A stretch of 64,000 nucleotides of DNA from Steroidobacteraceae bacterium (GTDB taxonomy: Bacteria > Pseudomonadota > Gammaproteobacteria > Steroidobacterales > Steroidobacteraceae). Below are positions 3,870-50,368 of the stretch, in pieces. The translations under genes were made by a program, and so were the position numbers. The stretch spans positions 5,657 to 69,656 of the forward strand of contig DASVWT010000308.1 in NCBI GenBank assembly GCA_036393055.1, read 5' to 3'. The first letter of the stretch is position 1. Every line of letters begins with the position of its first letter. Under the pieces are notes generated by a model. It did not search any database, was not told the origin of the DNA, and worked only from the letters and a program-made list of their open reading frames with translations.

Positions 3870-3882
3870 GGATAGACTCCCA

Positions 3883-6171: not shown

Positions 6172-6242
6172 CGTTGGAACTCTCTCGCTGTTGCTCGATG
6201 TGACCGCACCTGCGGCCGAATGGTCGCCGCGGAGCCGCGGCA

Positions 6243-8263: not shown

Positions 8264-8297
8264 GTGGCTCGGCCTGCTGTCGTGGGGGTGCGATATT

Positions 8298-8343
8298 GTT
8301 ATAGCAAAAATACAAATCGTCGACAAGCCTATTGTCCGGACAT
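8298..8343. promoter_or_regulatory. divergent control region: palindromic operator TTGTCCGGACAT plus minus-strand sigma70-like promoter
   Basis: The 12-mer at 8332-8343 matches the recurring palindrome TTGTCCGGACAA. On the minus strand: TTGTCG (8326-8321), 17-nt spacer, TG-extended TATAAC (8303-8298), about 35 nt upstream of ATG 8263. Confidence 0.5.
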
Positions 8344-8397
8344 TTTTTTCGGACCATCGGCGGGTCTTGGCGGCGGCGCACCCGGGCGGCGGTAAAA

Positions 8398-8421
8398 TGC
8401 TATAATCGTAAGTCAATTGAC
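8398..8421 (+). promoter_or_regulatory. TG-extended -10 promoter element followed by perfect 10-bp palindrome
   Basis: TGcTATAAT at 8398-8406. GTCAATTGAC (8412-8421) lies at the expected transcription start, 22 nt before GTG 8443. ATTGAC recurs at 8434-8439. Confidence 0.45.
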
Positions 8422-8442
8422 CCGCAGCGGGAGATTGACCCA

Positions 8443-9159: not shown

Positions 9160-10712
9160 CCGAGACCGCAGCGGCTGCGGCGGGGAAGACGTTGGCCGGG
9201 GCGGAAGCAGGGCTCCGCTCGGTGGCCGTCAGATCACGGGTCACCGCGTTCATCGACAACGCGTTCGAGTCCGCGGGTGCCGGGGAGGTGCTGCCGGTGA
9301 CCGATCCGGCACTCGAGCGCCGGGTAAGCGAGGTGGAAGAGTCCGGTCCGGCCGTGGTCGACCGGGCCGTGCAAGCGGCCCGTCGGGCATTCGCGCAGGG
9401 GCCGTGGCCCCGCATGGAGGTTGCGCAGCGCCAGACCATCCTGCGGCGGGTGGCGGCACTGATCAGAGAGCACGCGGAGGAGCTGGCGTATCTCGAATGT
9501 CTCAACTCGGGCATTCCGATGCGGCATCTGGCGCTGGGACAAATCCCGCGGGCCGCGCTCAATTTCGACTTCTTCGCCGAGTTCATCGGCCAGGTGGCCG
9601 GAGAGACCTACGGCCAGGATTCGCGCTACCTGACCCTGGTCACACGCGAGCCGGTGGGCGTCGCCGCGCTCATCGGGCCGTGGAACGCACCGCTGGCGCT
9701 GACCTCCATGAAGATCGCCGGTTGCATCGCCTTCGGCAACTGCTGCGTCGCGAAGCCGGCCGAGCAGACCCCGCTCGCGGTCGCCAGGCTGATGGATTTG
9801 ATCGTCGAGGCCGGTATGCCGGCGGGCGTCGTGAACATGGTCTGCGGGCGCGGCCCCGTGACCGGCGACACGCTGGTGAAGCACCCTCTGGTGAACCTGG
9901 TCTCCTTCACGGGCGGCACGGCGACGGGGCGCGCGGTCATGGCCACGGCGGGAGCGGGATTGAAGCCCTGCTCGATCGAGCTCGGCGGCAAGTCCGCGAA
10001 CATCGTGTTCGCCTCAGCCGATGTCGAGCGGGCGCTCGATGGGGCGTTGCTCGGCATTTTTTCCAACAACGGCCAACAGTGCCTGGCGGGCTCACGCATA
10101 CTGGTCCAGCGGCCGATCGCACGAGACTTCATCGACGCCTTCGCGGCGCGCGCGGCGCGACTCAGGGTCGGAGATCCGATGGATCCCGCGACCGAGATCG
10201 GCCCTCTCGCCTTCCGCGCCCATTACGACCGCGTGCTTTCCTACGCAAAGGCAGCCCGGTCGGAAGGCTCACGGCTGCTCACAGGCGGCGGCCCGGCAAA
10301 GGGCTTCGAGCGCGGCTTTTACATGGAGCCGACGGCCATTCAGGTCGCCGACCACCGCCACCGCCTCTGTCAGGAGGAAGTGTTCGGCCCGCTGGCCACG
10401 CTACTCGTGTTCGATACGGCCGAGGAGGCGATCGCGCTCGCCAACGACACGCGCTTCGGGCTCGTCTCCTACATCTGGTCGGACCATCTGCCGACCGCGC
10501 TGCGCACAGCACGCGCGATGGCAAGCGGTGTCGTTTGGATCAACACGCCCATGGTCCGGGAGCTGCGCGCTCCGTTCGGCGGTGTCAAGGAGTCAGGGAT
10601 GGGGCGCGAGGGCGGCCGCGCTTCCATGCAGTTCTATACGGTGGAGAAGACTACCGCCATCGCGGTGGGCGATGTGCCGATGGTCCGCCTGGGGGCCCTG
10701 TCCGATTCATGA
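9156..10712 (+). CDS. NAD(P)-dependent aldehyde dehydrogenase
   Basis: ORF track 9063..10712, start set to GTG 9156, which overlaps the upstream stop. Hallmarks: FTGGTATGRAVMA, IELGGKSANIVF (Glu), NNGQQCLAGSRILV (Cys), EEVFGPL. Confidence 0.85.
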   Translation: MTETAAAAAGKTLAGAEAGLRSVAVRSRVTAFIDNAFESAGAGEVLPVTDPALERRVSEVEESGPAVVDRAVQAARRAFAQGPWPRMEVAQRQTILRRVAALIREHAEELAYLECLNSGIPMRHLALGQIPRAALNFDFFAEFIGQVAGETYGQDSRYLTLVTREPVGVAALIGPWNAPLALTSMKIAGCIAFGNCCVAKPAEQTPLAVARLMDLIVEAGMPAGVVNMVCGRGPVTGDTLVKHPLVNLVSFTGGTATGRAVMATAGAGLKPCSIELGGKSANIVFASADVERALDGALLGIFSNNGQQCLAGSRILVQRPIARDFIDAFAARAARLRVGDPMDPATEIGPLAFRAHYDRVLSYAKAARSEGSRLLTGGGPAKGFERGFYMEPTAIQVADHRHRLCQEEVFGPLATLLVFDTAEEAIALANDTRFGLVSYIWSDHLPTALRTARAMASGVVWINTPMVRELRAPFGGVKESGMGREGGRASMQFYTVEKTTAIAVGDVPMVRLGALSDS

Positions 10713-10753: not shown

Positions 10754-11971
10754 TCAAAGAGCACGGTAGCTTTCCTCATCGGCTGGGTTGGCCCATTCGC
10801 CGAGCGTGCCCTCCACTGCACGCAAGTACTCGGCTGACTTCACGGCCGTCGCGACATACCATGCGCCGGGTCCATCCAGCTTGGGCAGCTCGGTCTCTGC
10901 GATCGCATCGTGAGAGAATCCGGCCTCGCCGAGCAGCTTCACCACATCGGCCTCGGCGAACACCTGCCAGAAGGGCTCGTTGTTGTATCGGGTCTCCCAG
11001 GCGAAGAGATACCGCTCATACAGGCTGCGGTCGCCGCGGATCGGCACGTCCTGGTGGACTGCGATACCGCCCGGCCGCAGCACCCGGTGCGATTCCGCGA
11101 GCATCCGCGCCAGGGTGTCGCGGGAAACCTCGTGCATGAGGTTGTGAGAGACGACGAGGTCGAAGTGCCCGTCGGGAAAGCCTAGATGGCGCACATCCAT
11201 CTGGTGGAAGTGCACGGCGACGCCGAGAGACTCCGCGCGCGCATGCGCGTAGCGCAGGATCGCCGGGGCGGCATCCACGGCGTGCACCTCGGCGTCGGGA
11301 AAGTCTGCGGCATAACCAACCGACGCACCGCCGGCCGAGCATCCGAGGTCGAGGATTCGACGCGGCCGCAAGTCGGGAAATCGCTGCGCCAGGTGCCGGA
11401 TCACAGCCCCTGCCTTGCTATCGCGTCCCCCGATGCCGACGCCCGAGGAGTAGAGATTGCCGCCGCTCTCATACAGCGCGCCGGCCATGATGTCCTCCTC
11501 GCCGCTGTCGCGCAGGTAGCCTCCCGGCTGGCAGTGGATGTTGGCAACCAACAGGTCGGGAGGCGCCGCTAGTCCGGGATCGAGCGTCAGCGATCCCAGA
11601 GGGTGCCCCGGCTGTGCCGACTGCCCCGACCGCCTCAATCCGCGCGCGGTCTCGAGCATACGCGGCATGTCGCGCACGATCGTGTCCTCGACGACATTCC
11701 ACATCATCTCCTGCGCGCCGCGGGTCAACGCGCTCCACAGGCGGTGACTCGCTTCGCCGGCCATCGCGTCCTCCACCTCCTCGGCTGTCTCAGGACTGCG
11801 GCCGTGGCGGGCGCGAAAGCGCGGCTCGACGTCGCGCCGGTACAACGCCGCGTCCTCACGCGTCATCCCGCGCAGATGGCGCTTCAGCGCCACGATGAAT
11901 TGCGCTCGCGCCACGTCGTCCGACGTCTGCCGTGCCAGCATCTCGTGAGGCTTGCTACGATGCATGTCCAT
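10754..11971 (-). CDS. SAM-dependent methyltransferase-like protein with ~190-aa N-terminal extension (paralog 1 of 4)
   Basis: 405-aa ORF. Class I methyltransferase core: RILDLGCSAGGAS, VHAVDAAP, FDLVVSHNLMHEV, LRPGG. Family motifs HGRSPETAEEVEDAM, AQEMMW, YNNEPFW. GAGGTG RBS upstream of ATG 11971/11965. Confidence 0.8.
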   Translation of the reverse strand: MDMHRSKPHEMLARQTSDDVARAQFIVALKRHLRGMTREDAALYRRDVEPRFRARHGRSPETAEEVEDAMAGEASHRLWSALTRGAQEMMWNVVEDTIVRDMPRMLETARGLRRSGQSAQPGHPLGSLTLDPGLAAPPDLLVANIHCQPGGYLRDSGEEDIMAGALYESGGNLYSSGVGIGGRDSKAGAVIRHLAQRFPDLRPRRILDLGCSAGGASVGYAADFPDAEVHAVDAAPAILRYAHARAESLGVAVHFHQMDVRHLGFPDGHFDLVVSHNLMHEVSRDTLARMLAESHRVLRPGGIAVHQDVPIRGDRSLYERYLFAWETRYNNEPFWQVFAEADVVKLLGEAGFSHDAIAETELPKLDGPGAWYVATAVKSAEYLRAVEGTLGEWANPADEESYRAL

Positions 11972-12854
11972 GGTTCACCTCGGTGCGATTCGTGCCGTAA
12001 CTTACTGTGTGCCCGATCTGCCCGCGGTCGAGCGCGCCTATGTCGAAACCCTCGGATATACCGTTGCGGGCCGCGGCCGGATCGGCGCGCACCTCGCGCG
12101 GGCCTGGGGCGCGGTAGCGATCACCGGCCTGCGGGTGTTGCTGCTCGCCCCTGCAAGCGGCGAGGCCGTGTTTCTGCGCTTCATCGAAGACTCTCGGGCC
12201 GGCGCCTGCGCCGCCCTGACGACGCACGGCTGGAATGCAACCGAATTCGTCGTGCAGGATGTCGATGCGCTGGCGCTGCGGCTCGAGAAGGGCCCGTTCC
12301 GGATCATCGGTCCGCCGAAGGGGCTCACCCGCTTTCCGATGATCCGCGCCATGCAGGCGATCGGGCCGGCGGGGGAATGCTGTTATTTCACCGAGGTCGG
12401 AGCCGGCTCGGGTCTGAGCCTGGCCGAGGCCCGCGCTTTCGTGGGCAGGGTGTTCATCGTGGTCGCGGCCGGGCCGGATGCCGATGCACTCTTTGCGCCC
12501 TACCGGGAGTTCGCCAATGCCGCGGACCCGCCGGTCGCAACACCCGTCGCGGTGATATCCGCGGCCCACGGGCTGCCGCTCGAGACGCCGCATCGGCATG
12601 GGCTCGTGCGTCTGCCCCGCGGCACACTGATCGAGCTCGATCAGTATCCGCCCGCCGCGCGGGCGCGCCCCTGCGTGCCCGGAAGACTTCCGCCCGGGAT
12701 GGCGATGGTCACGCTCGATGTTGAGTCGCTGGCCGGCCGCCGCGGCATCACCCCGCTCGCGGCAGGCGACCTTCCCGGCATCGACGGCTCCGCGGCGTGC
12801 CTGCGCGGTGCGGCAGGCGAGATCATCGAGCTCATCGCCCCAGCCTCGAGTTGA
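11964..12854 (+). CDS. two-domain VOC (glyoxalase/dioxygenase-fold) family protein, paralog 1
   Basis: ORF track 11952..12854 (TTG). ATG 11964 or ATG 11970 is more likely: MVHLGAIRAVTYCV aligns with the paralog N-terminus MLRSATLSV. Clear paralogy to 12866-13741 (FLRFIEDS..GWNATEFVV..GPFRIIGPPKGL). Confidence 0.7.
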   Translation: MSMVHLGAIRAVTYCVPDLPAVERAYVETLGYTVAGRGRIGAHLARAWGAVAITGLRVLLLAPASGEAVFLRFIEDSRAGACAALTTHGWNATEFVVQDVDALALRLEKGPFRIIGPPKGLTRFPMIRAMQAIGPAGECCYFTEVGAGSGLSLAEARAFVGRVFIVVAAGPDADALFAPYREFANAADPPVATPVAVISAAHGLPLETPHRHGLVRLPRGTLIELDQYPPAARARPCVPGRLPPGMAMVTLDVESLAGRRGITPLAAGDLPGIDGSAACLRGAAGEIIELIAPASS

Positions 12855-12865
12855 TTCGGCGGTGA

Positions 12866-13741
12866 TCACACCGCAACCAGCTCGATGAGCGTTCCATCGG
12901 GCGCCCGCAACGTGCCGGTGCGCTTGCCGCCGTAAATGATGCCCGTCCTCTGCTGCGGCGTCTCGATCCAGGGGCCTTCGAGGAGGTGAAACTCGGGGTG
13001 CCCCAGGGTCACGAGGCCGGCGCCGGGCGGCAGCTCGCCCGGCCGCGCTGGACGCGGCGTCGCACCGCGCGGGTACTGGTCAAGCTCCAAGAAGACATCG
13101 CGTCCGTGGGAGAGCGTCGCGATAGTATGCAGGTCCGAGGTTGGCAGACCGAACGCGTCCGCCAGCATGGTGTATGGAATCTCCATCTTCCGCCCGAGCG
13201 AGAGCCGCAGCGCGCGCTCGAACCAGGCGAGCGAGCCGTCGAGATCCGAGCAGGCGAGCACGGCGATGAATATCGAGTCGACCGGGGACGCGGCGCGCGG
13301 CAGATCGTACATGGGCAGATCGTCGAGGATCTGCGTGAGATACACGATCTCCCGGTCCGGACCCCGCACCTGCATCGGGAAGATGGCAGGCAATCCTTCC
13401 AGGGGCCGCGGGGGCCCGATGATCTCAAAGGGCGAGTCCCGCAGCCTCCGATCGACGGCAAGGACATCCGCGACGCAAATCTCGATGGCCGCCCAACCGT
13501 AGGTCCGTAGGGGCAGGTAGCTTGGGACCGTATCGCTCGCAATCAGGCGCAGGAAGACCTCGGCCCCCGACGATGGCGCGAGCACGAGGTAACGGCGGCC
13601 CGCCATGGCGGACGCTCCCCAGCTTGCCGCCAGATCCGGCTCGATCCGGCCCTCCTCGACGATCCGGTAGTCGAGCCATCGTACGTATCGTTGGGCGGTC
13701 GCATCGGGATCGCCGACGCTGAGCGTGGCGGAGCGCAGCAT
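12866..13741 (-). CDS. two-domain VOC (glyoxalase/dioxygenase-fold) family protein, paralog 2
   Basis: ORF track 12866..13807, start trimmed to ATG 13741, 2 nt after the upstream stop. FLRLIASD..GWAAIEICV..SPFEIIGPPRPL; C-terminal ..APDGTLIELVAV. Confidence 0.75.
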   Translation of the reverse strand: MLRSATLSVGDPDATAQRYVRWLDYRIVEEGRIEPDLAASWGASAMAGRRYLVLAPSSGAEVFLRLIASDTVPSYLPLRTYGWAAIEICVADVLAVDRRLRDSPFEIIGPPRPLEGLPAIFPMQVRGPDREIVYLTQILDDLPMYDLPRAASPVDSIFIAVLACSDLDGSLAWFERALRLSLGRKMEIPYTMLADAFGLPTSDLHTIATLSHGRDVFLELDQYPRGATPRPARPGELPPGAGLVTLGHPEFHLLEGPWIETPQQRTGIIYGGKRTGTLRAPDGTLIELVAV

Positions 13742-13743
13742 CT

Positions 13744-14043
13744 TCACGTCGATGTTTGCTCCGGCTGCAGGACCCGCAGCACACGCGCGACGTATTCCCG
13801 GTTCCACTGCCCGCGCTCCGCCGAATCCGCGGCATTGGGCTCGAAGGTCTCGAGCTCCGGACGCGCGAGCACGCCCTTGCGCTCGAGCAGTCGCTCCAGC
13901 GTATCGATGCGCACCCGCGCCACCGCGAGCTCCTGTGCGATCGCCATTGTGACGGCGAGCACGCGCTCGACCTCAGGCGCCAGAAACCAGGGCCGGTCGG
14001 AACCGGTGTGCGGTCCTCCCGCCGAAGATTGCGGTGTCGACAT
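13744..14043 (-). CDS. small helical protein, partner family copy A (99 aa)
   Basis: 99-aa ORF, GGAGG 8 nt upstream of the ATG. Core LAVTMAIAQELAVARVRIDTLERLLERKGVLARPELETFEP..REYVARVLRVL is paralogous to the small ORFs at 17724, 22554 and 44782. Confidence 0.65.
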   Translation of the reverse strand: MSTPQSSAGGPHTGSDRPWFLAPEVERVLAVTMAIAQELAVARVRIDTLERLLERKGVLARPELETFEPNAADSAERGQWNREYVARVLRVLQPEQTST

Positions 14044-14101: not shown

Positions 14102-14851
14102 TCAGTGCTGCAAGTCGAGCCGAAGCTGGTAACGGTCGGAGCGGTAATGGGCGACGGTGAGCAGCAGGGGATTGCCGCGCTGATCGAACACCGAGCGCGT
14201 GATGCGCAGGATGGCCGAGCGCGGCTCGACCGCGAGGTGGCGGCAGAGCACCGGATCGGCGAGCACGGCGGCCACCGTCTGCGAGGCCTTGCCGAGCCGA
14301 AAGCCGGCGTTCTTGATGAGTTTCAGGACAGGCTTGTGCGTGAGGCCCTCGCGGGTGATGTGCGGCGCCAGCGCGGCCGGTACGTAACTCAAGACGTAGC
14401 CCAGGGGCTCGCGATCGAGGTAACGCACCCGCACCGCTCGTATCACCGCATCACCCGCCTTCAGGCCCATCAGCTCGGCCACCCCCACGCTGGCCGCCTC
14501 CTGCTGCACCTCCAGGACGCGGACTTTGGTCAACCGGCCGAACTCCAGCAGCGAGTCCACAGCCTGATCCATGTTCGCCTCGATCGGCTTGGCCGGCGGG
14601 CGGTAGATCACGGTCGTGCCGACGCGGCGCTTGCGCGCCACGAAGTGATGTTGGGCAAGCTCCGCCAGCGCGCGGCGCGCCGTGATCCGCGAGACACCGC
14701 AGGTCAGCGAGACCTCTTTCTCGGTCCCGACGATCGAGCCGCAGGGGCGCTGTCCGGAGAGGATCTCGTCGCGCAACTGCAGGAAGATCTGATGATACAG
14801 GGGAATGGCTGCCGACCTGTCGATGGCGGCGCGCTTGTTGCTCGCTTGCAT
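14102..14851 (-). CDS. GntR-family transcriptional regulator (HutC/UTRA type)
   Basis: ORF track 14102..14995, start trimmed to ATG 14851 (MQASNKRAAIDRSAAIPLYHQIF), 249 aa. HTH GTEKEVSLTCGVSRITARRALAELAQHHFVARKRRVGT. Divergent from the hydantoinase operon. Confidence 0.85.
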   Translation of the reverse strand: MQASNKRAAIDRSAAIPLYHQIFLQLRDEILSGQRPCGSIVGTEKEVSLTCGVSRITARRALAELAQHHFVARKRRVGTTVIYRPPAKPIEANMDQAVDSLLEFGRLTKVRVLEVQQEAASVGVAELMGLKAGDAVIRAVRVRYLDREPLGYVLSYVPAALAPHITREGLTHKPVLKLIKNAGFRLGKASQTVAAVLADPVLCRHLAVEPRSAILRITRSVFDQRGNPLLLTVAHYRSDRYQLRLDLQH

Positions 14852-15008
14852 GATTCGCCTTTGCGGCGGCTCCCGTGGTGGACCCTGCGGATCGCGCCCG
14901 ACACCCCCGCGGGAGCGGTACCGATCCCGGCGCAATTGTAAGACAGCATCGGCTGCGCAGCGAGGCCGGCGTCGCCGACGGGCCCGCATGCGCACCCGCG
15001 ATCGGGCT

Positions 15009-15062: not shown

Positions 15063-16535
15063 ATGGCGGGCGAGAAGTACGATCTGCTGGTGCGCAACGT
15101 GCGCGTGGTGCGTCCAAACGCAGGCTCCGTGTCTGTGCAGGACATTGCGGTCAAGGACGGCAGATTCGCCGCCGTCGGAGGAGCGCTCGATCCGGCCGCG
15201 GCGGCGAACGTCGCCGATGCGCGCGGCATGCTCGGCTTCCCGGGCCTGGTCGATGCGCACATGCACACGGGCATCTACAGTCCGCTGGCCGAGGACGCCG
15301 TGACCGAGAGCCGGGCCGCCGCGCAGGGCGGTGTGACCTCGAGCCTCAACTACTTCCGCTCGGGCCAGTACTACCTCAACAAGGGCGGCCCCTACGCGGA
15401 ATTCTTCCCCGAGGTGCTCGATATCTCCAAGGGCCGCTTTCACGTCGACTACGCCTATCATCTGGCGCCGCTGGATACGCGCCAGATCGGCGAGATCGAC
15501 ATGCTGATCGAGAAGTACGGCGTCACGTCCTTCAAGATTTTCATGTTCTACGGCGGGTACGGCCTGCACGGCGCGTCCGGCCATCAGCACGAGTTCCTGA
15601 TGATCGGGCCCGAGGAGAAGTACGACCTCGCCCACTTCGAGTTCGTCATGCGGGGCGTGGAGCGCGCGCTCGCCAAATTTCCGGACCGCAGCCGCTACAT
15701 CAGCCTCAGCCTGCATTGCGAGACCGCCGAGATCATGGCCGCCTACACCAAGCTGGTGCAGCAGGAAGGCAAGCTCAGCGGTCTCAGGGCCTACAGCGCG
15801 GCGCGGCCCCCGCACTCCGAGGGACTCGCGGTCACGATCGCCTCGTACCTCGCGCACGAGACGCGGTGCCTCAACATCAATCTCCTGCACCTGTCCTCGC
15901 GCAAGGCGGTGGAAGCCGCGCTCACCATGGAGCGCGCCTTTCCGCACGTCAATTTCCGCCGGGAGGTGACGATCGCGCACCTCTGTATCGATTACGACGT
16001 CAAGACCGGCGTGCTCGCCAAGGTCAATCCGCCCATCCGCTCGCGCGAGGACGTCGAGTACCTCTGGCAGACCCTGCTCGACGGCAAGATCGACTGGGTG
16101 TGCAGCGATCACGCCTGCTGCCGGCACGAGATGAAGGTCGATGGCAGCAGGCCGGGCGACGTCTTCCTCGCCAAGTCCGGATTCGGTGGCACGGAGTACC
16201 TGCTCTCGGCCCTGCTCAGCGAGGGCCGCCGGCGCGGCCTGTCCTACAACCGCGTCGCCGAGCTGACCTCGTGGAATCCGGCGCAGCGCTTTGGCCTGCT
16301 GCGCAAGGGAGACATCGCTCCCGGATTCGACGCCGATCTGGTGCTGGTCGATCCCGACAAGTCGTTCGTCGTGCGCGCGGCGGAATCCGAATCCCGGCAG
16401 GGCTACACGCCATTCGAAGGCATGGAGCTGACGGGCAAGGTTGCCGCGACATATCTGCGCGGCAACTGCATCTACGAGAACGGCGCGGTAGTCGGACCGC
16501 CGCAGGGACGCTACCTCCACCGTCCTTACGCCTGA
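15063..16535 (+). CDS. hydantoinase/dihydropyrimidinase-type cyclic amidohydrolase
   Basis: 490 aa. Complete metal-site pattern: VDAHMH (HxH), SFKIFM (carbamylated Lys position), SLHCE, LLHLSS, CSDHAC. Confidence 0.9.
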   Translation: MAGEKYDLLVRNVRVVRPNAGSVSVQDIAVKDGRFAAVGGALDPAAAANVADARGMLGFPGLVDAHMHTGIYSPLAEDAVTESRAAAQGGVTSSLNYFRSGQYYLNKGGPYAEFFPEVLDISKGRFHVDYAYHLAPLDTRQIGEIDMLIEKYGVTSFKIFMFYGGYGLHGASGHQHEFLMIGPEEKYDLAHFEFVMRGVERALAKFPDRSRYISLSLHCETAEIMAAYTKLVQQEGKLSGLRAYSAARPPHSEGLAVTIASYLAHETRCLNINLLHLSSRKAVEAALTMERAFPHVNFRREVTIAHLCIDYDVKTGVLAKVNPPIRSREDVEYLWQTLLDGKIDWVCSDHACCRHEMKVDGSRPGDVFLAKSGFGGTEYLLSALLSEGRRRGLSYNRVAELTSWNPAQRFGLLRKGDIAPGFDADLVLVDPDKSFVVRAAESESRQGYTPFEGMELTGKVAATYLRGNCIYENGAVVGPPQGRYLHRPYA

Positions 16536-16545
16536 GGAGCCAACC

Positions 16546-17727
16546 ATGGCCGCGATGATCCAGCCCGACCGCACCACCCCGGACGCGGCCGCGCTGGCCT
16601 CCCGGCAGTCGTTCGTCGCGTCTCTGCGCGGTTATGTCCTCGACGATCTCGCTGCCGCGATGCGGCATACGTACGAGTCGGAAATCGAGCCCGCGTTCGA
16701 GCGAGCCCACGGCCGGCCGCCGCGCACGGAAGATGAAGTGCACGCGGCCATGCAGAACAACGCCGTCTTCAAGATCTACAGCTCGATCCGGGTCAACGCC
16801 CAGGAGATGGTCTGGCGCTCGGTGATTCCCGCCGCCGAGGCCGGTCTCGCCGACCTCGAGAAGGCGGTATCGGGCGCGCCCGGGCAGCGTGTGGGCTCCC
16901 TGACCCTCGATGAGTCGCTGACTCTTCCCGCGAACGTCGCAAGCCTCGAGGTTCACCTGATGCCTGGCGGCTATGCCCCCGACGCTTCGGCTCTGGCCGG
17001 AGCCGTCTATGACCGGGGCCTCGCCGTGTTCGCCGCCGGTATGATGGGCAGGAATCAGGACGACATCGGCCTCTCGATGGCGAATTACGTCAAGCATCGC
17101 TTCACGGAGTTTCATCCGCGGCGGATTCTCGATTGCGGCGCGACCGTTGGACACAACTCGGTGCCGTGGGGACTGACCTTTCCTGAAGCGGAAGTGCATG
17201 CGATCGATGTCTCCGCGGCGGTGCTCGCGTACGGCCACCGCAGGGCGCGGAGTCTGGGTGTACCCGTTCATTTTCGCCAGATGAACGCCACCCGGCTCGC
17301 CTATCCGGACGCGTCCTTCGATGTGGTCTTCAGCTCCATGTTCCTGCACGAGCTGCCGGTCGCCGATATCCACCGGTTCTTCGCCGAGGCGCGCCGCGTG
17401 CTGCGGCCGGGCGGCCTGCTGCTCAACATGGAGCTGCCGCCCAACCGGGAGCTGGCTCCGTACGATCAGTTCTATCTGGACTGGGACTGCTACTACAACG
17501 AAGAGCCCTACTATCGCGCCTTCCGCGATCAGGACCCGGAAGCTCTCGTGGCCGCGGGCGACTTCCGGCGGGACTGCTACTTCCAGTTCGTCGTGCCGCA
17601 ATACTCCTATATGACGGAGCCGGAGTTCATCGCCGCCGTCAGCGCACCGCCCGCCATCGGCCAGCAGACCGGGCGCCTGAGCTCGGGGGTTCAGTGGTTC
17701 GGCTTTGGCGCGTGGAATCGCCCGTGA
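16546..17727 (+). CDS. SAM-dependent methyltransferase-like protein with N-terminal extension (paralog 2 of 4)
   Basis: 393 aa, GAGGAG RBS. RILDCGATVGHNS, VHAIDVSA, FDVVFSSMFLHEL, LRPGG, YNEEPYY. N-terminal HGRPPRTEDEVHAAM, AQEMVW. Confidence 0.8.
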   Translation: MAAMIQPDRTTPDAAALASRQSFVASLRGYVLDDLAAAMRHTYESEIEPAFERAHGRPPRTEDEVHAAMQNNAVFKIYSSIRVNAQEMVWRSVIPAAEAGLADLEKAVSGAPGQRVGSLTLDESLTLPANVASLEVHLMPGGYAPDASALAGAVYDRGLAVFAAGMMGRNQDDIGLSMANYVKHRFTEFHPRRILDCGATVGHNSVPWGLTFPEAEVHAIDVSAAVLAYGHRRARSLGVPVHFRQMNATRLAYPDASFDVVFSSMFLHELPVADIHRFFAEARRVLRPGGLLLNMELPPNRELAPYDQFYLDWDCYYNEEPYYRAFRDQDPEALVAAGDFRRDCYFQFVVPQYSYMTEPEFIAAVSAPPAIGQQTGRLSSGVQWFGFGAWNRP

Positions 17728-18047
17728 CCGGCTCACCGCTCGACACGACCGGTCCGCGCCAGCGCTTCTTCGAGGCGGAACCAGTCGATCATCTCGTCAC
17801 CATGATGCTCGAGCTGGCCGCAGAGGTGTGGGCCGTCCGCGAGCGTCTCTACATCATCGAGAAGGAGTCCGCGCGTCTGGGGCTGCCCCTGGGCTCCGCC
17901 GTGGAGGGGCATGTCCTCTCGCCAGAAGAGCAGGCGGAGCTCGCCGAGATGCGCCGGCACATGCTGGCCAACATCCTGCGCACAGTGGGCCGGCCGCACC
18001 GCGATCCGCCTGAGATGCCCGGCACGACGGCGCCGCGCGCGGAATGA
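17724..18047 (+). CDS. small helical protein, partner family copy B (107 aa)
   Basis: ORF track 17694..18047, start set to GTG 17724, which overlaps the methyltransferase stop (GTGA). Core LVTMMLELAAEVWAVRERLYIIEKESARLGL..EMRRHMLANILRTV. Confidence 0.65.
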   Translation: MTGSPLDTTGPRQRFFEAEPVDHLVTMMLELAAEVWAVRERLYIIEKESARLGLPLGSAVEGHVLSPEEQAELAEMRRHMLANILRTVGRPHRDPPEMPGTTAPRAE

Positions 18048-18048
18048 C

Positions 18049-18852
18049 ATGGCCGGATCCGAGCCGATGCCGCAAGTCCCTGCGCGCAGCGATACGACGC
18101 CGCGCGAATACGGACGCCGGGGTGTTTTCGGCATATTGACACCTCAAAGCAACGCGATCGCAGAGCAGGAGCTGCGTATCCTGTTGCCGCCGGCCTGCTC
18201 CATGGTCAGCGCGCGGCTCACGAGCGCGGGCCGCACCCTCGAGCGGCGCCTGGCGGATTACGGCGAGCGGCTGGACCAGTTCCTCGATCAGTTCGGCAAT
18301 ATCGCCGCCGATGCCGTGGGCGTCGCTTGCACCGGGTCATTCTACGGCCTGGATCGGGGCGAAGAGCGCACCCGCAGGCAGGCCCGGCAGGCGCGCCGCG
18401 GATGTCCCGTCGTAACCTCCGTGGACGCGATCGATGCCGCTCTGCGCGCACTCGGCATCGGCTCCATCGCCATCGTGTCTCCTTACCCCGCCTGGCTCAC
18501 CGAAAGCTGCCGCTCGCATTGGGTAGGGCTGGGCACGCGTGTGACCGGCGTGCTGCAGCTCTCATCCGGAGCGACCGAGCCCCATCGGATCTACTCGCTC
18601 ACTTCCGCGTCAGTGCTCGAGGAAACTCTGCGATTCGACGTGCAGGGAGCCGAAGCTATCCTGCTGTCGGGAACGGGCATGCCGAGCCTGCGCGTCATCC
18701 AACAGCTCGAGCCCACGCGTGGCATCCCGGTGCTGTCATCGAGCCTCTGTCTGGCCTGGGCGCTAGCCCGGACCGTGGATCTCGGCGAGCGCGGTCCGGA
18801 GTCGCGGCTGTACGGCGGATGGGCCGGGCGCCTGGCGCTGGCACTGGCATGA
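18049..18852 (+). CDS. Asp/Glu/hydantoin-racemase superfamily protein (maleate isomerase / arylmalonate decarboxylase-like)
   Basis: ORF track 17911..18852, start trimmed to ATG 18049, 1 nt after the upstream stop. FGILTPQSN, AVGVACTGSFY, IAIVSPYP, AILLSGTGMPSLRVIQ, IPVLSS. Confidence 0.7.
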   Translation: MAGSEPMPQVPARSDTTPREYGRRGVFGILTPQSNAIAEQELRILLPPACSMVSARLTSAGRTLERRLADYGERLDQFLDQFGNIAADAVGVACTGSFYGLDRGEERTRRQARQARRGCPVVTSVDAIDAALRALGIGSIAIVSPYPAWLTESCRSHWVGLGTRVTGVLQLSSGATEPHRIYSLTSASVLEETLRFDVQGAEAILLSGTGMPSLRVIQQLEPTRGIPVLSSSLCLAWALARTVDLGERGPESRLYGGWAGRLALALA

Positions 18853-20051
18853 CGGCAGAGCTTCGCAAGCCCGTTCTCATCGTCGGCGCCGGTCCGGTTG
18901 GGCTGACTGCCGCATTGCGTCTGGCGCAGGCCGGAGTTGCGGTCGCGCTTTTCGAGGCCGAGCGTGCCGTCTCGACGGATCTGCGCGCCTCGACTTTTCA
19001 TCCGCCGACCCTCGACATGCTGGATACTCTCGGCGTGGCGGTGGAGCTCATCGCCCAGGGGCGGCTGACGCCCCGCTGGCAAGTCCGCCTGCACGAGACG
19101 GGCGAGCGCGCGGAGTTCGATCTCAGCATCCTGGCGGACGAGACACGCCACCCGTATCGCCTGCAGTGCGAGCAGCAGGTATTGCAGCGTCTGCTGCTCG
19201 ACCGGTTGGCTCAGTATCCCCATGCGCGCATCCGTTTCGACGCCGAAGTCGAGGCGGTGGGACAAGACGCCCGTGGAGTCTGGGTCGGCGTCAAAGGCGA
19301 GCGCACACAGGGCAGTTGGCTGATCGGCGCCGACGGCGCCCGCAGTATCGTACGCCGGACGTGCGGCATCGGTTTCGAGGGCGAGACCTATCCGGAGAGC
19401 ACGATCCTGGTCACCACGGATTTCGAGTTCGAGCGGTCGCTCCCGGGGCTCTCGCCCGTCAATTATATCTGGGCCGGCGCCGGAACCTTCAGCCTCCTGC
19501 GACTGCCCGATTTCTGGCGCTGCAGCCTCTACCCCCGCGAAGGGCAGACGCTCGAGAGCGCGATGGAGGATGATTCAATCGAGGCTCAACTCCAACATGT
19601 AGTCTCGCGTGCCGAGCGCTACAGGGTTCTGCACAAGAGGTGTTACCGCATCCACCGGCGTGTCGCCGACACGTATCGCCGGGGGCGCATGCTGTTGGCA
19701 GGCGATGCAGCGCATCTCAACAGCCCGAGCGGCGGCATGGGAATGAACGCCGGAATACATGACGCCTTCAGCCTCACGGACTGCCTCATTGGAGTCCTGG
19801 GAGATGCGGATGAACGGCTGCTCGACCGCTATGAGCGTCAGCGGCGCCCGATCGCCGTCGAGCACGTTCTGCAGCAATCCGACCGCAACCGGCGCCGCAT
19901 GCAGGAGACCGATCCGCAGCGCCGCCGCGAGCTGCTGCGCGACCTGCAACTCACGGCGGCGGATCCCGCACGGGCTCGCGAGTATCTGCTCGCGAGCTCC
20001 ATGATTGCCGGTCTGCGGCAGGCGGGCAGGATCGAGTCGGTGCAGACATGA
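18849..20051 (+). CDS. FAD-dependent aromatic-ring-type monooxygenase
   Basis: Within ORF 18327..20051; start ATG 18849 (ATGA overlap). VLIVGAGPVGLTAALRLAQAG, GADGARSIVRR, LAGDAAHLNSPSGGMGMN. Confidence 0.85.
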   Translation: MTAELRKPVLIVGAGPVGLTAALRLAQAGVAVALFEAERAVSTDLRASTFHPPTLDMLDTLGVAVELIAQGRLTPRWQVRLHETGERAEFDLSILADETRHPYRLQCEQQVLQRLLLDRLAQYPHARIRFDAEVEAVGQDARGVWVGVKGERTQGSWLIGADGARSIVRRTCGIGFEGETYPESTILVTTDFEFERSLPGLSPVNYIWAGAGTFSLLRLPDFWRCSLYPREGQTLESAMEDDSIEAQLQHVVSRAERYRVLHKRCYRIHRRVADTYRRGRMLLAGDAAHLNSPSGGMGMNAGIHDAFSLTDCLIGVLGDADERLLDRYERQRRPIAVEHVLQQSDRNRRRMQETDPQRRRELLRDLQLTAADPARAREYLLASSMIAGLRQAGRIESVQT

Positions 20052-21448
20052 GGAGTTCCACTGCACGCGCATTCTCCAATCGCTACGCGTGGTACGTCGC
20101 GGGACTGCTGACGCTCACGCAGATCGTTTCCTATCTGGATCGTTTCCTGCCGAGCCTGCTGGTACGGCCCATCAAGCAGGACCTGCACTTGAGCGATTTC
20201 CAGATCGGGCTGCTGCTCGGGCCGGCATTCGTCGTGTTCTATGTCCTGCTCGCCGTCCCGCTGGGCTGGTTGGCAGATCGAGTCAACCGGCGCGCCATTC
20301 TGGCCGTGGGCGTGGCGATCTGGTGCTCCATGACCGCCGCGGCAGCGGCGGTGAGCGGCTTCCTGCCGCTGTTCGCGACCCGCCTCGGGGTGGGATTCGG
20401 CGAGGCGGCCGTCGCACCGACGTCGATCTCGCTGATCGGCGATTACTTCGGGCGCGAGCGGCAGGCGCGCGCCGTCAGCCTCTTCATGTCCGGTGCGTTC
20501 CTCGGCGCCGGCGCGTCGTTTCTCTTCTTCGGGCCGCTGGTCCATTACATCGAGTCGCTGCCCACGGTCGCGTTGCCGCTGCTCGGCCGGATCTCATCGT
20601 GGCGGTTGTGCTTCCTCCTGGTCGGGGCCCCCGGCCTGTTGCTGACACTCCTCATGCTGACGGTGCGCGAGCCGGCGCGACGGGATCGTGTTGCAATACG
20701 CTCACGGGATGGCCGGACGACTTCGAGCGCAGAGGCGAATCCGACGTTCTCCGAAGGCATCGCCTACATCGTACGGCGGTGGCGCGCCTTCGGAACGCTG
20801 TTTGTCGCGTCCTCCTGCAATGTCATGATGGGTGCCCTCGCGTTCTGGAACGTCGCACTCTTCGGCCGCACGTGGCACTGGAATGTCGCCCAGGTGGGCA
20901 TCGCGGTCGGGGTGATCCTCTTTACCGCTGGGCCCCTGGGGACGCTGCTCGGTGTCTATCTGACCAACCGCGACCTGGCCGCGGGCCGAAGGGATGCGAC
21001 CCTGCGGGCGCTTTTCGTCGGTCTGCTCATCGGAGTGCCCACGTACTGCGCCTTTCCGCTGATGCCGAGCGTCCAGTTGGGGCTGGCGGTTTTGTTCGTC
21101 GCGCTGCTCGGTCAGGCCATGGCCACCGCAGCGGGGCCAGCCACCCTGGTGATGCTGGCGCCCGGCCAGATCCGCGCCCAGTCGACCGCCATTTACTATC
21201 TGGTGATCAGCATCGTCGCGCAGCTCATCGGACCGCCGCTGGTGGGTCTCATCACCGACCTGCTCGGCAGCCCGGACGCGCTGCGCTACGCCGTTGCCAT
21301 CGAGGCGGCCCTGATCGGGATTCCGTCGATCGTGCTCGTCTGGCTCGGCTTTGGGGCCTACCGCCGTTCCGTGGCGGAGCTCGAGGGCCAGTTCGATGTC
21401 GAGTCGTGGCCCGCCGGTACGCCCGCCATAGAAGGAGCGCCAAGATGA
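20048..21448 (+). CDS. MFS transporter
   Basis: 466 aa, multi-TM hydrophobic profile. MFS loop motif GWLADRVNRRAIL. ATGA overlaps at both ends. Confidence 0.85.
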   Translation: MRSSTARAFSNRYAWYVAGLLTLTQIVSYLDRFLPSLLVRPIKQDLHLSDFQIGLLLGPAFVVFYVLLAVPLGWLADRVNRRAILAVGVAIWCSMTAAAAAVSGFLPLFATRLGVGFGEAAVAPTSISLIGDYFGRERQARAVSLFMSGAFLGAGASFLFFGPLVHYIESLPTVALPLLGRISSWRLCFLLVGAPGLLLTLLMLTVREPARRDRVAIRSRDGRTTSSAEANPTFSEGIAYIVRRWRAFGTLFVASSCNVMMGALAFWNVALFGRTWHWNVAQVGIAVGVILFTAGPLGTLLGVYLTNRDLAAGRRDATLRALFVGLLIGVPTYCAFPLMPSVQLGLAVLFVALLGQAMATAAGPATLVMLAPGQIRAQSTAIYYLVISIVAQLIGPPLVGLITDLLGSPDALRYAVAIEAALIGIPSIVLVWLGFGAYRRSVAELEGQFDVESWPAGTPAIEGAPR

Positions 21449-22557
21449 CATTCTCGCTCGAGAGCCGGGCCACGCTGCAATTCGTGTTGACTCTGCGCCG
21501 CCGATGGGCGGATACGCTCTATCCGCGCTTGCGCGCGGAATGTGATGCCCTGGGCGGCCCGGAATCGCTCGCGCCCGATGGTTTCGCGGATCGCGTCCAC
21601 GGGCTGAGGAGCTATCCGGGCTTTGCGTGGCTGGAGCGCGGGTCGCAGAAGATGTTGTGGCGCGCGGCGATCGATGCGATCACGGGGGATGATGCCGGGG
21701 AAGCTCGTGCGGCGGAAAGTGGCACCGCGAAACGCGACGCGGCGGATCGAGCGGCAGGACGAAGATATCCGACAGGGCCCGCGTCGGGCTCGACGCTGGA
21801 GCTCGACCCGCAATTGCCGCTGCCGGATTGGTATACCGGCTGGGACATTCACTTGCAGCCGGGCGGTGTTTGGTCCGATGCAACCTCGGCCCGGGTATAC
21901 GAGCTCGGCGCGCGGCTGGTGATGCTGGGCGACAACGACGATTACAAGTTTCATCGCCTGTTCGTGGAGACCGCCGTTCCGCGACGCGATTACCGCCGGA
22001 TCGTCGATCTCGGCTGCGGCTTCGGCAAATCCACGTGGCCGCTGAAGAAAGCCTTCCCCGTTGCGGAAGTGATCGGCATCGATCTCTCCGCGCCATGCCT
22101 GGAGCTTGCGGTGCGGCGGACTGCGGCAAAAGGACTCGGCATTCGCTTCCGGCAAGCGAATGCAGCCGGAACCGGACTCGAGGCGGCGCGCGCCGATCTG
22201 GTCACCGCCACCATGCTCGCCCACGAATTGCCGCTCGATGCTCTGGCGGCGGTTCTCGCGGAGGCAGCGCGCCTTCTGGCGCCGGGCGGCCTGCTGCGGA
22301 TTCTGGATTTTCAGTACACCGGCGACCCCTTGCGCGATCTCGCGATGACCGAGCATGGCGCACGCAACAACGAGCCCTTCATGCCGCCGATGATGTCGGC
22401 CGATACGGTCGGTATGGCTGAGGCCGCGGGCCTGCGGGAGGTGCGCTGGACGGCCTTCGACGAGCGCGATGCGGGCAGACTGGAGCAGCTTGCGTGGCCG
22501 CAGCGCGCGGAATGGCACTTTCCGTGGGCGGTCCTCGAAGCGGAGAAGCCGGCGTGA
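21445..22557 (+). CDS. SAM-dependent methyltransferase-like protein with N-terminal extension (paralog 3 of 4)
   Basis: C-terminal part of ORF 20005..22557; start ATG 21445 (GGAG RBS, ATGA overlap with the MFS stop). RIVDLGCGFGKST, VIGIDLSA, ADLVTATMLAHEL, LAPGG, RNNEPFM. Confidence 0.8.
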   Translation: MTFSLESRATLQFVLTLRRRWADTLYPRLRAECDALGGPESLAPDGFADRVHGLRSYPGFAWLERGSQKMLWRAAIDAITGDDAGEARAAESGTAKRDAADRAAGRRYPTGPASGSTLELDPQLPLPDWYTGWDIHLQPGGVWSDATSARVYELGARLVMLGDNDDYKFHRLFVETAVPRRDYRRIVDLGCGFGKSTWPLKKAFPVAEVIGIDLSAPCLELAVRRTAAKGLGIRFRQANAAGTGLEAARADLVTATMLAHELPLDALAAVLAEAARLLAPGGLLRILDFQYTGDPLRDLAMTEHGARNNEPFMPPMMSADTVGMAEAAGLREVRWTAFDERDAGRLEQLAWPQRAEWHFPWAVLEAEKPA

Positions 22558-22883
22558 GCGCGCCCGCTGAATTCGGCGGCATCGACAACTCACATCTCGC
22601 GGCCCTCGTCTTCGAGCTGGCCTCACAATTGCACGTGGAGCGCGCGCGACGCCTCGCGCTCGAGGCAACGCTGACGCGTCTCGGCATTCTCGATGCCTCG
22701 CAGATCGAGGCTGCCGCTGACGGTCCCTCTTACCGGCAACAGACGGCCCTTCTGGCGGATGAGGCGATCCGCAGGCTCCTGGAAGTACTGTCCGAGTCGA
22801 GCGACGAGCGCAAGCCCCTGCGCGCCGAGGCGCCCGCAAGCGCCGCGCCGCCGGCCGCAGACGCCGAAAGCAAACATCCCTGA
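22554..22883 (+). CDS. small helical protein, partner family copy C (109 aa)
   Basis: ORF track 22494..22883, start set to GTG 22554 (GTGA overlap). Core LAALVFELASQLHVERARRLALEATLTRLGILDASQIE..ADEAIRRLLEVL. Confidence 0.65.
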   Translation: MSAPAEFGGIDNSHLAALVFELASQLHVERARRLALEATLTRLGILDASQIEAAADGPSYRQQTALLADEAIRRLLEVLSESSDERKPLRAEAPASAAPPAADAESKHP

Positions 22884-22895
22884 AGGAGAATCCCG

Positions 22896-23720
22896 ATGGC
22901 CAGGCCGTGGATCGAATTCGTGCAGTCGCAGAACCTGCCTTGGGCGGCCGGTGATCTCTGGGGCTGCCGCCCCGGTGTCGACCTCAAGGTCCTCAGTCTG
23001 GACCCCGATCAGGGCGCCGCCAGCCTGCTGGTGCGTTACCCTCCCGGGTGGCGGCTCGAGCGCGAAGGCACGCTCTCGGCCGACGAGGAATTCCTGGTGT
23101 TGGACGGCGCTCTCTCGCTGGGGCGGCAGCGCCACGGCGAGAAGGCATACGCACACCTGCCGGCGGGCTACGCGCGCGGTCCGATGGCATCCGAGAGAGG
23201 CGCTGTCGCTCTGACTTTCTTCTCGCAACGGCCGTTCTGGGACACGGCGAGGCCGTTCGATCCGGCGCGGCTGGTCGAGAACCTGGATGCGTTCTCCGTT
23301 CCCTACACCGGGCGCTTCCATCCGGAGTTCCCGCCCGGAGCCGGCCGCAAGACGCTGTATGAGGATCCCGTCACCCACGATCAGAGCTGGATTCTCGGCA
23401 CCCTGCCGATGCGCTGGGCGGAGCGCGCGGAGGTTCATCCCGTCGTGGAGGAAATGTATCTGTTGAGCGGCGAGTCGCACGGCAACCGCGGAGTGATGCG
23501 CCCCGGCGCCTACTTCTGGCGGCCGCCCGAGATCGCGCACGGGCCGTACGGAACGCTGACGGGAAACCTCTACTTCTTCCGCACTCACGGCGGACCGCTG
23601 GTCACCCGATATGTCGATTCCGGCCAGCCGTTCCGCTGGTGGCCCGCGTACGATCCCGTGTTGCCGGAGGAGCTCGCCGGTGCGCGCGGCGAAGCCGCGC
23701 CCGCCCCGCGGTGCTGGTGA
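22896..23720 (+). CDS. cupin-fold (apparent bicupin) protein of unknown function
   Basis: 274 aa, AAGGAG RBS. Two cupin-like halves (..ADEEFLVLDGALSL.. and ..HPVVEEMYLLSGESHG..PPEIAHGP..). Confidence 0.6.
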   Translation: MARPWIEFVQSQNLPWAAGDLWGCRPGVDLKVLSLDPDQGAASLLVRYPPGWRLEREGTLSADEEFLVLDGALSLGRQRHGEKAYAHLPAGYARGPMASERGAVALTFFSQRPFWDTARPFDPARLVENLDAFSVPYTGRFHPEFPPGAGRKTLYEDPVTHDQSWILGTLPMRWAERAEVHPVVEEMYLLSGESHGNRGVMRPGAYFWRPPEIAHGPYGTLTGNLYFFRTHGGPLVTRYVDSGQPFRWWPAYDPVLPEELAGARGEAAPAPRCW

Positions 23721-23723
23721 GCA

Positions 23724-24398
23724 ATGACCCGACTCCCTTACTCTTGCCTCGTCTTCGCCCACCTGCTCCTCTTCGTCCTGTGGCTCGGGGGTGACGTCGG
23801 CGTCTACACACTCGGCCGCCACTTCCGTATGCGCGCCCGCTACAGCATCGAGCAGCGGCTCGCGCTGCTGAAGCTCCTCGTGGCAATCGACATGGTGCCG
23901 CGAACCGCCTGGGCCCTGATGGTTCCGGTGTCCCTCTCCGTCGTCGCGGCGGGCGGTTACTGGGCGGTACCGCGCTGGCTGCTGGCGCTGGCGTGGATCG
24001 CGGGGCTTCTCTGGACCTGGCTCGTCTGGGATGCGCACGCGCACGAGCGGACGCCACGGGCGGCACGCGAGCGGCGCGTCGAATTCTGGCTGAAGATCGT
24101 GCTGGCGCTCTTCTACCTCTGGCTGGGAAGCGCTTCGCTCGCAACCGGAGCGCCGCTGACAGCCGCGTGGCTGGCCGTGAAGGCGCTGGCGTTCGGCCTG
24201 ATCTTCGGTGCCGCCACGATGATCGATGTCGCCTACCGGCCGGTCGGCGCACAGCTCGGCCGTCTCCTGCGCGAGGGCTCGAGCGATGCCACCGAGCTGC
24301 CGCTGCTCGTGACCATGAACCGCACGCGCGCGTGGGTCTGGACGGTGTATCTGCTGCTGTTGGTGACCGCATTTCTCGGTGTCGCAAAACCCTTCTGA
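23724..24398 (+). CDS. integral membrane protein, unknown function (paralog A)
   Basis: 224 aa, about 5-6 hydrophobic helices. N-terminal LVFAHLLLFVLWLGGDVG; C-terminal LLVTAFLGVAKPF. Paralogous to the next gene. Confidence 0.7.
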   Translation: MTRLPYSCLVFAHLLLFVLWLGGDVGVYTLGRHFRMRARYSIEQRLALLKLLVAIDMVPRTAWALMVPVSLSVVAAGGYWAVPRWLLALAWIAGLLWTWLVWDAHAHERTPRAARERRVEFWLKIVLALFYLWLGSASLATGAPLTAAWLAVKALAFGLIFGAATMIDVAYRPVGAQLGRLLREGSSDATELPLLVTMNRTRAWVWTVYLLLLVTAFLGVAKPF

Positions 24399-24451
24399 TC
24401 CGCGGGCGCCATCCAACCGACCCACTCCTCCGCAGCACCCAAAGGTGAGCC

Positions 24452-28073: not shown

Positions 28074-28186
28074 GCGGAATGTCCCCCGACGATCGCTTGA
28101 TATGTATTTAGTCTATAGCAAATAGATGCTGCGTGGAAACCCCGCCCCGACCGAAGCCCGCCCCCTGCCCTGCCGGGTCGGTGCGA

Positions 28187-50356: not shown

Positions 50357-50368
50357 TCAGAACGACCC

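Follow-up and report, generated by a model that had tools for sequence, protein, structure and literature searches.

A pair of adjacent genes in a 64,000-nt stretch of a Steroidobacteraceae metagenome-assembled genome (67% G+C; this whole stretch is called the window) encodes a protein with the class I S-adenosylmethionine (SAM)-dependent methyltransferase fold, MT, and a small helical partner, S. The copy under study consists of MT_b (16546–17727, + strand; 393 amino acids), which carries an N-terminal two-helix extension ahead of its methyltransferase core, and S_b (17724–18047, +; 107 amino acids), which overlaps the MT_b stop codon in a GTGA. Judged by sequence comparison, MT–S is a recurrent, co-inherited unit. 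The two genes neighbour each other in some 150 stretches of genome or metagenome DNA from Alpha- and Gammaproteobacteria, and their products therefore almost certainly work together. The pair is robustly real, widespread, and uncharacterized. We infer a complex, methyl transfer, and a substrate class for it: MT–S would be a heteromeric, two-subunit SAM-dependent methyltransferase acting on small molecules in catabolic islands for nitrogen-containing compounds, a reading to which we give about an even chance.

All open reading frames (ORFs) of the window were searched with family hidden Markov models (HMMs). The search identified exactly four copies of MT (370–405 amino acids) and exactly four of S (99–120 amino acids), and no further copy of either family was found among the remaining ORFs. 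MT_a (10754–11971, −; 405 amino acids) has no adjoining S, and S_a (13744–14043, −; 99 amino acids) has no adjoining MT. MT_c (21445–22557, +; 370 amino acids) is followed by S_c (22554–22883, +; 109 amino acids) through a GTGA overlap, and pairs b and c share one operon. MT_d (44779–45993, −; 404 amino acids) is 70–74% identical to its sphingomonad orthologues, and its ATGA overlaps the start of S_d (44420–44782, −; 120 amino acids), which represents the commonest S subtype. The three MT–S junctions read CCGTGACCG, GCGTGAGCG, and TCATGAGCG, each a 4-nt overlap. A preliminary description of this DNA, made from its letters and translated ORFs, had reported four MT paralogues of about 395–405 amino acids, three of them overlapping a member of a second paralogue family of 99–120 amino acids by 4 nt. 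The MT coordinates it gave all translate cleanly, the junction sequences confirm the three overlaps, and all four S ORFs match one family HMM. The count of four MT copies also stands, with sizes of 405, 393, 370, and 404 amino acids.

The extent of the pairing was determined in a genome scan that used one genome per species. The scan returned 521 MT relatives from Alpha- and Gammaproteobacteria, and the best 80 loci were inspected. S is directly downstream of MT in 74 of the 74 loci with enough downstream DNA, and the remaining six, which lack S, all stop at a contig edge. A reverse scan anchored on S with a narrow S alignment gave 80 metagenome loci. Of the 78 loci with enough upstream DNA, 75 have MT, either full or truncated by the contig, immediately before S; MT is about 350 nt away in one of the other three, and two have no MT within 3 kb. 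The recurrence of the pair that had been noticed inside the window therefore holds in other genomes and metagenomes. At 96 MT–S junctions the spacing was determined: it ranges from −4 to +12 nt in 77 of them, and 39 show a 4-nt overlap of the form ATGA or GTGA. The loci with the MT genes closest to MT_b, MT_c, and MT_d also have the S genes closest to S_b, S_c, and S_d, respectively, and the pairwise identities of MT and S are correlated (r = 0.82 over 86 pairs). These data indicate that the pair duplicated and diverged as a unit.

The 4-nt overlap had also been taken as an argument for an obligate MT–S unit. This argument does not hold for the window. The operon at 15063–25114 (+) contains 12 genes, and nearly every junction in it is a 4-nt overlap or a gap of 12 nt or less. 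The overlap is uninformative about MT–S in this genome because nearly all junctions of the operon are equally tight. The main evidence for the pair is its conserved adjacency elsewhere and not the overlaps found here.

Profile-HMM searches of the two families placed Pfam Methyltransf_25 and Methyltransf_11 far above gathering in all MT copies and gave no accepted match for S. The four MT copies scored 69–85 bits against Methyltransf_25 (gathering cut-off 27) and 57–72 bits against Methyltransf_11 (cut-off 21.2). The Methyltransf_25 match of MT_b (1.2e-20) spans residues 194–290. No Pfam match was found in the first ~185 residues of the MT copies, and the core lies in the C-terminal half, an arrangement that agrees with the earlier division into an extension of about 190 residues and a methyltransferase core. 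The AlphaFold2 model of MT_b (pLDDT 87, pTM 0.89) has long N-terminal helices at residues 12–55 and 73–106, a poorly ordered loop at 136–142, two more helices, and a Rossmann core from residue 193 in which strands and helices alternate as in the class I fold. The top Foldseek matches of this model are the small-molecule N-, O-, and C-methyltransferases PMT, MitM, CysG(N-16)/BelI, and AtmM, all with probability 1.0 and with TM-scores of at most 0.44 when normalized to the MT query. Sequence matches in the PDB (E ~1e-7 to 1e-8) are confined to small-molecule methyltransferase cores and cover residues ~185–310. These profile and predicted-fold matches place MT in the class I SAM-dependent methyltransferase superfamily.

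The four MT copies share 30–35% pairwise identity and 46 invariant alignment columns. The motifs quoted in the preliminary description (the motif I variants, HE, PGG, and NxEP) are all present in the alignment, and HGRxP is missing from the 21445 copy, MT_c, as it had stated; MT_c has the canonical motif I, DLGCGFG. The SAM-motif positions D196, G198, G202, D221, and Q245 are invariant in 66 MT sequences, a set that includes paralogues at ~30% identity. H268-E269 and N318-x-E320-P321, the latter within an aromatic/acidic lid, are invariant in the same 66 sequences, as are the loop residues H137, P140, and G141. On these alignments MT appears to keep its SAM-binding motifs. MT_b has at least 1689 homologues at E ≤ 1e-10, and nearly all are ~393 amino acids long. 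For UbiE/MenG, BioC, CpaM, TehB, and the other NCBIfam equivalogs compared, MT scores far below the cut-off. MT scored 39–45 bits against TIGR01934 (cut-off 158) and 33–41 bits against PRK00216 (216–378), the two UbiE/MenG models, and 26 bits against TehB (218). The best NCBIfam match, CpaM NF043040, reached 54–61 bits against a cut-off of 180 and is limited to the core. PADLOC matched mad2 to the core only (residues 178–310), which falls short of calling a defence system. Similarity to CheR in Pfam was not significant (E = 0.24, in one copy only). By these scores MT lies outside every named subfamily examined.

The S family is divergent. The four S copies are only 24–26% identical to one another, and the family HMM, which was built with relatives of each, matches them with E = 3e-20 to 4e-56 (8e-32 for S_b). 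At E ≤ 1e-3 the family comprises 1,594 clusters (50% identity), all of 82–240 amino acids. The concern that the small ORFs might lack homologues or conserved synteny is refuted by these clusters and by the conserved adjacency to MT. The S_b homologues at 75–87% identity are likewise ~107 amino acids long, and the start of S_b was assigned to the GTG at 17724 and not to the upstream GTG at 17694, in keeping with these homologues and with the ATGA junction in the nearest relative, locus L010. The AlphaFold2 prediction for S_b contains helices at residues 21–51, 56–61, and 67–89 with a pTM of 0.50. S alone is thus predicted as separate long helices and not as a compact independent domain. Its most conserved positions are the charged residues R39, R41, and E46 (S_b numbering). 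S_d-type proteins have a basic N-terminal segment, AKAKGRRP, and some S members carry long Lys/Ala/Pro-rich tails resembling histone H1, one of which gave a weak Pfam HC2 match. One of the tailed S proteins still adjoins MT; only a minority of the family has such tails, and none of the four S copies of the window does. The longer S members were considered as fusions and rejected, as their extra length consists of basic low-complexity tails and not of MT or U domains (U is the membrane protein described below).

We did not detect a known family for S in NCBIfam, PADLOC, a PDB sequence profile search, or Foldseek. Pfam at E ≤ 1 gave nothing for the four S copies except one spurious HHA match (0.19). 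Database entries name S 'hypothetical' and occasionally 'phasin', and full-text literature searches found no published description of the MT–S pair. On these searches S belongs to no described family. The statement in the preliminary description that the pair was not recognizable as a described system is upheld by the missing S matches, the generic names in the source records, and the silence of the literature.

Genes adjacent to MT–S in other genomes were examined for clues to the pathway. Around MT_b orthologues, the genes that recur encode a LysR regulator, a TonB-dependent receptor, an OYE/FadH-type Fe-S flavoenzyme, a GST, a ChrR-type cupin, and U. The wider set includes amidohydrolase, CN_hydrolase, PuuE-like deacetylases, isochorismatase-like hydrolases, FAD oxidases, and aldehyde dehydrogenases, together with MFS transporters, TonB receptors, and GntR or LysR regulators for transport and regulation. 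The sphingomonad MT_d/S_d operons have the order TonB receptor, MFS transporter, FAD_binding_4 oxidase, CN_hydrolase, MT, S, and U, and they face an operon encoding an aldehyde dehydrogenase, two PuuE-like deacetylases, and an isochorismatase-like hydrolase. The pair on Sphingomonas plasmid pJE1 neighbours flavin oxidoreductases, hydantoinase A/B-type proteins, and a succinate-semialdehyde dehydrogenase. In pJE1 and other records the two genes are named 'class I SAM-dependent methyltransferase' and 'hypothetical protein'. The common theme inferred for these islands is the uptake and breakdown of nitrogen-containing organic compounds. Purine/allantoin-like, creatinine/N-methylhydantoin, and nicotinate-type pathways were not adopted, nor were betaine-synthesis and metallophore readings, as no defining enzyme scored above threshold. 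Rfam searches of the window and six related loci gave no riboswitch match.

U is a membrane protein family of ~225 amino acids with ~6 hydrophobic segments and at least 1221 homologues. U is directly downstream of S in 46 of the 80 genome loci and in 19 of the 72 S-anchored metagenome loci, the latter count having been made with a less sensitive HMM. A comparable Stenotrophomonas island has U but neither MT nor S, with a cytochrome c and an ETF-QO gene beside it; U is therefore a frequent, not obligate, associate of MT–S. Further U-family genes were located in L004 (6400–7083), L007 (6386–7066), and L092 (9001–9708 and 11460–12122). Sphingomonad U proteins scored 18–20 bits against DUF2269 (gathering cut-off 28), and the window copy matched only DUF554, at 17.9 bits against 25.1. 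PADLOC gave no match for U. According to a 2015 study (PMC4562309), DUF2269 has a distant likeness to DUF989, which forms the membrane part of the urate oxidase PuuD. This similarity suggests that U might be a membrane redox protein rather than a transporter.

The two-subunit methyltransferase that we favour would operate as follows. MT and S would be the two products of one conserved, co-translated gene module. The large subunit, MT, would bind SAM and substrate through its Rossmann core. Its accessory elements would be the predicted N-terminal hairpin of two long helices, the glycine-rich H-x-x-P-G-G-Y loop, and the aromatic/acidic lid with N-x-E-P. S, all-helical and presumably non-catalytic, would pack on these elements and thereby stabilize or complete the substrate site, or act as its gate. 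A single intermediate or reactive by-product of the pathway would be N- or O-methylated by each paralogous pair, and the substrates of the islands would be imported cyclic amides or ureides, amides, and amines. A cationic amine would be a fitting substrate in view of the lid and of the closest fold matches, which are phosphoethanolamine N-methyltransferases; O-methylation of a carboxyl group is equally possible. A variant on a metagenome contig bears on where S may pack. The 216-amino acid protein at L174 3483–4133, upstream of the S-family protein P0407, matches only positions 7–99 and 289–350 of the MT profile, which correspond to the helical extension and the lid; the Rossmann core is missing. 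The retention of these two elements beside S is counted in support of S packing on them. The P0407 protein carries a 130-residue Lys/Ala/Pro-rich tail. This core-less form is one of 188 MT hits examined; it may be functional without a core, or it may be a gene in decay.

Several observations weigh against this two-subunit methyltransferase. One or two SAM per substrate molecule would be costly in catabolism, which speaks against methylating the main source of carbon or nitrogen stoichiometrically; islands with two or more pairs add weight to that objection. Two pairs per island are a recurrent design and not a peculiarity of this window, because b-type and d-type pairs share an island in at least nine sphingomonad loci (L056, L062, L076, L078, L079, L081–L083, and L089), where they are convergent within ~5 kb. 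The MT_a subfamily (10754–11971 type) usually has no adjoining S and is unpaired also in L014 and L017, so S is not indispensable to every MT member. S or T replaces the middle (second) glycine of motif I in three of the four MT copies of the window, a replacement tolerated among class I methyltransferases. The Lys/Ala/Pro-rich tails of some S proteins fit tethering or nucleic-acid binding better than an enzyme subunit. A natural MT–S fusion was not found among the best 150 S representatives, and none of the neighbour genes reaches an NCBIfam equivalog cut-off.

The arrangement of the pair also varies. S_a is not beside MT_a but sits between a GntR gene and a VOC/glyoxalase-like gene. S of the S_a subtype has an MT fragment directly upstream in L014, and the S protein most similar to S_a, on plasmid pJE1, abuts MT. 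Tandem MT-MT-S arrangements occur.

The cost of SAM and the several pairs per island keep alive readings in which SAM is put to another use or S serves as a tether or an acceptor. An MT-fold protein that does not methylate, and with S either catalyses another reaction or senses a metabolite with SAM as cofactor, ligand, or unbound, would avoid the expense of stoichiometric SAM use by each pair. Known methyltransferase-fold enzymes act as cyclases, hydroxylases, or carboxy-SAM synthases. The core-less variant beside S, which keeps just the helical extension and lid, and the invariant residues that paralogues only 30% identical share beyond the SAM site would fit this role. The SAM-motif positions are, however, invariant across the MT family, every one of the best matches in sequence or fold is a true methyltransferase, and the core-less form was a single hit that may be decaying. 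We consider a non-methylating MT unlikely. S might instead be an adaptor that localizes MT, either at the nucleoid or another polyanion through basic tails or at the membrane through U, near transporters and membrane redox proteins. This is suggested by the histone-like extensions of several S proteins, including the one that matches HC2 and the one that abuts MT, by the basic start of the S_d type, and by the position of U directly downstream of S in many genome loci and in the sphingomonad operons. The tails are confined to a minority of S proteins, though, and are seen in none of the window copies; U is found without either partner in Stenotrophomonas and follows S in only about a quarter of the S-anchored loci. 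A tethering role for S is accordingly improbable in our judgement. A broader reading, hinted at by the core-less variant, the several pairs per island, and the DUF2269-PuuD similarity (PMC4562309), is that MT, S, and often U form an undescribed multi-component system. The helical S and the helical elements of MT would be its functional heart, with the Rossmann core dispensable in some lineages, and this heart could serve as a sensor or a scaffold, or could be a SAM-dependent catalyst that does not methylate and is coupled to membrane redox chemistry during N-heterocycle or ureide breakdown. We regard such a system as doubtful.

Two further readings concern the relationship of the subunits themselves. 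MT and S could belong to the same pathway without contact, with their adjacency a matter of operon inheritance only. The 4-nt overlaps at nearly all operon junctions in this genome and the missing MT–S fusions would be expected in that case. The other neighbours vary by lineage, whereas the MT–S order and adjacency are almost invariant across Alpha- and Gammaproteobacteria, and S has no enzyme features and is not predicted as an autonomous domain. A pathway without MT–S contact therefore has only a slim chance of being correct. By analogy with CheR, S could also be the methyl acceptor, with MT modifying Glu or Arg on the S helical hairpin and methylated S acting in signalling or regulation. 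The charged nature of the most conserved S positions on a predicted helical hairpin and the strict one-to-one pairing of MT and S paralogues would suit an enzyme and its substrate. MT lacks significant similarity to CheR or other protein methyltransferases, and the enzymes that its fold matches act on small molecules. The islands already have regulators of the GntR or LysR type, and no known output domain is associated with the pair. Methylation of S is the least probable of these explanations.

The operon that contains pairs b and c begins with a cyclic amidohydrolase of the allantoinase/hydantoinase/dihydropyrimidinase-like type (15063–16535, +; Pfam Amidohydro_1). The preliminary description placed MT_b–S_b in a hydantoinase operon, a setting that is not sustained: the amidohydrolase scored 243 bits against allantoinase (cut-off 358) and 195 bits against D-hydantoinase (cut-off 393), so that no equivalog was reached, and among the 80 loci it neighbours MT–S only in the closest relative, L010. 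S_b is followed by an Amdase-like protein of the Asp/Glu/hydantoin-racemase superfamily (18049–18852, +), whose ATG is 1 nt after the S_b stop. Next are an FAD_binding_3 flavin monooxygenase (18849–20051, +), joined to the racemase-like gene by an ATGA overlap, and an MFS transporter (20048–21448, +) with 4-nt overlaps on both sides. Between S_c and U1 is a ChrR-type cupin/DUF4437 protein (22896–23720, +), the same family being found near MT_b orthologues in 12 loci. U1 (23724–24398, +; 224 amino acids) is a membrane protein with about six hydrophobic segments by hydropathy, and U2 (24449–25114, +; 221 amino acids) is its tandem paralogue. A HutC-type GntR/UTRA regulator (14102–14995, −) is divergent from the operon and upstream of S_a. 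In the MT_d operon, an MFS transporter (47552–48925, −) is the first gene and an FAD_binding_4 oxidase (45996–47555, −; 519 amino acids from the ATG at 47555) is upstream of MT_d.

Other genes of the window were recorded alongside these operons. Two paralogues of ~300 amino acids, at 12866–13807 (−) and 11952–12854 (+), have a weak Glyoxalase/VOC match (E = 0.003), and searches of known families gave these VOC-like neighbours sub-threshold matches only. One of them follows the orphan S_a. Relatives are directly upstream of MT_b-type genes in the Acetobacteraceae loci L020 and L023, and one is also beside an S_a-type gene in L014. A minus-strand ORF at 11955–12869 was rejected as a shadow ORF; the real gene is the VOC-like paralogue at 11952–12854 (+). 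Catabolic-island genes upstream of MT_a (1083–2258, −; 2340–4013, −; 3883–6333, −; 7043–8527, −; 9063–10712, +) encode two CN_hydrolase amidases, an FAD_binding_2 flavoprotein, a TonB-dependent receptor, and an aldehyde dehydrogenase, and the arrangement of aldehyde dehydrogenase and MT_a is kept in L014 and L017. The barrel and plug of a TonB-dependent receptor are in two ORFs, 25712–27475 (−) and 27231–28112 (−), that overlap by ~245 nt in different frames, which points to a frameshifted pseudogene or an assembly error. The MT_d operon is flanked on one side by an aconitase-family gene (41020–42657, −) and on the other (48730–51547, +) by genes for an HpcH/HpaI (citrate-lyase-beta-like) lyase, a MaoC/mesaconyl-CoA-hydratase-like protein, and an acyl-CoA dehydrogenase. 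Aconitase subunits, an HMGL-like lyase, and a CoA transferase are at the corresponding position in L004. The genes flanking the MT_d operon look like a C5-dicarboxylate (itaconate/mesaconate-type) CoA pathway.

The MT–S pair matters in several respects. S is a sizeable family that lacks a domain model, a solved structure, and a name, and MT relatives are found in more than 500 species-level genomes. The near-absolute linkage of S to one MT subfamily gives a concrete, testable hypothesis for both proteins. If MT–S is a heteromeric enzyme, it would be a bacterial small-molecule counterpart to the Trm112-type activator principle, and it would account for any lack of activity of such "class I SAM-dependent methyltransferases" expressed without their partner. 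In addition, the pair is a marker of uncharacterized catabolic islands in soil and marine Proteobacteria, with genes for TonB receptors, MFS transporters, amidases, PuuE-like hydrolases, and flavin oxidases.

MT and S were compared with known systems. The database names of S include phasin, and the COG label that some S homologues bear at JGI is phasin or polyhydroxyalkanoate (PHA) synthesis regulator. Phasins are small and helical like S, and PhaF has a Lys/Ala/Pro-rich tail comparable to the tails of some S proteins. The phasin Pfam models did not match any of the four S copies at E ≤ 1, and PHA genes were not found nearby; the label looks like a low-complexity or coiled-coil artefact. UbiE with UbiJ/UbiK and TehA/TehB resemble MT–S in that a class I methyltransferase is encoded next to accessory proteins that are small and helical or lie in the membrane. 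Some MT homologues bear the label 'UbiE' at JGI, and the Pfam Ubie_methyltran and TehB matches of MT are weak. Unlike MT, UbiE lacks the extension, the MT loci have no quinone-biosynthesis neighbours, and no UbiK-type Pfam model matches S at E ≤ 1. The small-molecule enzymes PMT, AtmM, BelI/CysG(N-16), and MitM have in common with MT a Rossmann core, a motif I, an acidic residue following strand 2, and an H following strand 4, but they lack the ~110-residue two-helix extension and the invariant HxxPGGY and NxEP. We know of no small-molecule enzyme of the Methyltransf_11/25 type (PMT, AtmM, BelI, MitM) that needs a separately encoded small subunit. The Trm112 holoenzymes, in which Trm9, Trm11, Bud23, or Mtq2 is paired with Trm112, are like MT–S in combining a class I methyltransferase with a separate partner of ~100–130 amino acids. 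Trm112 contains beta structure and a zinc knuckle, and the methyltransferases paired with it modify tRNA, rRNA, or release factors. S differs in its all-helical prediction, in having no accepted Pfam match and no PDB sequence or fold match, and in its catabolic context. The likeness of MT–S to the Trm112 holoenzymes is thus one of analogy only, not of homology.

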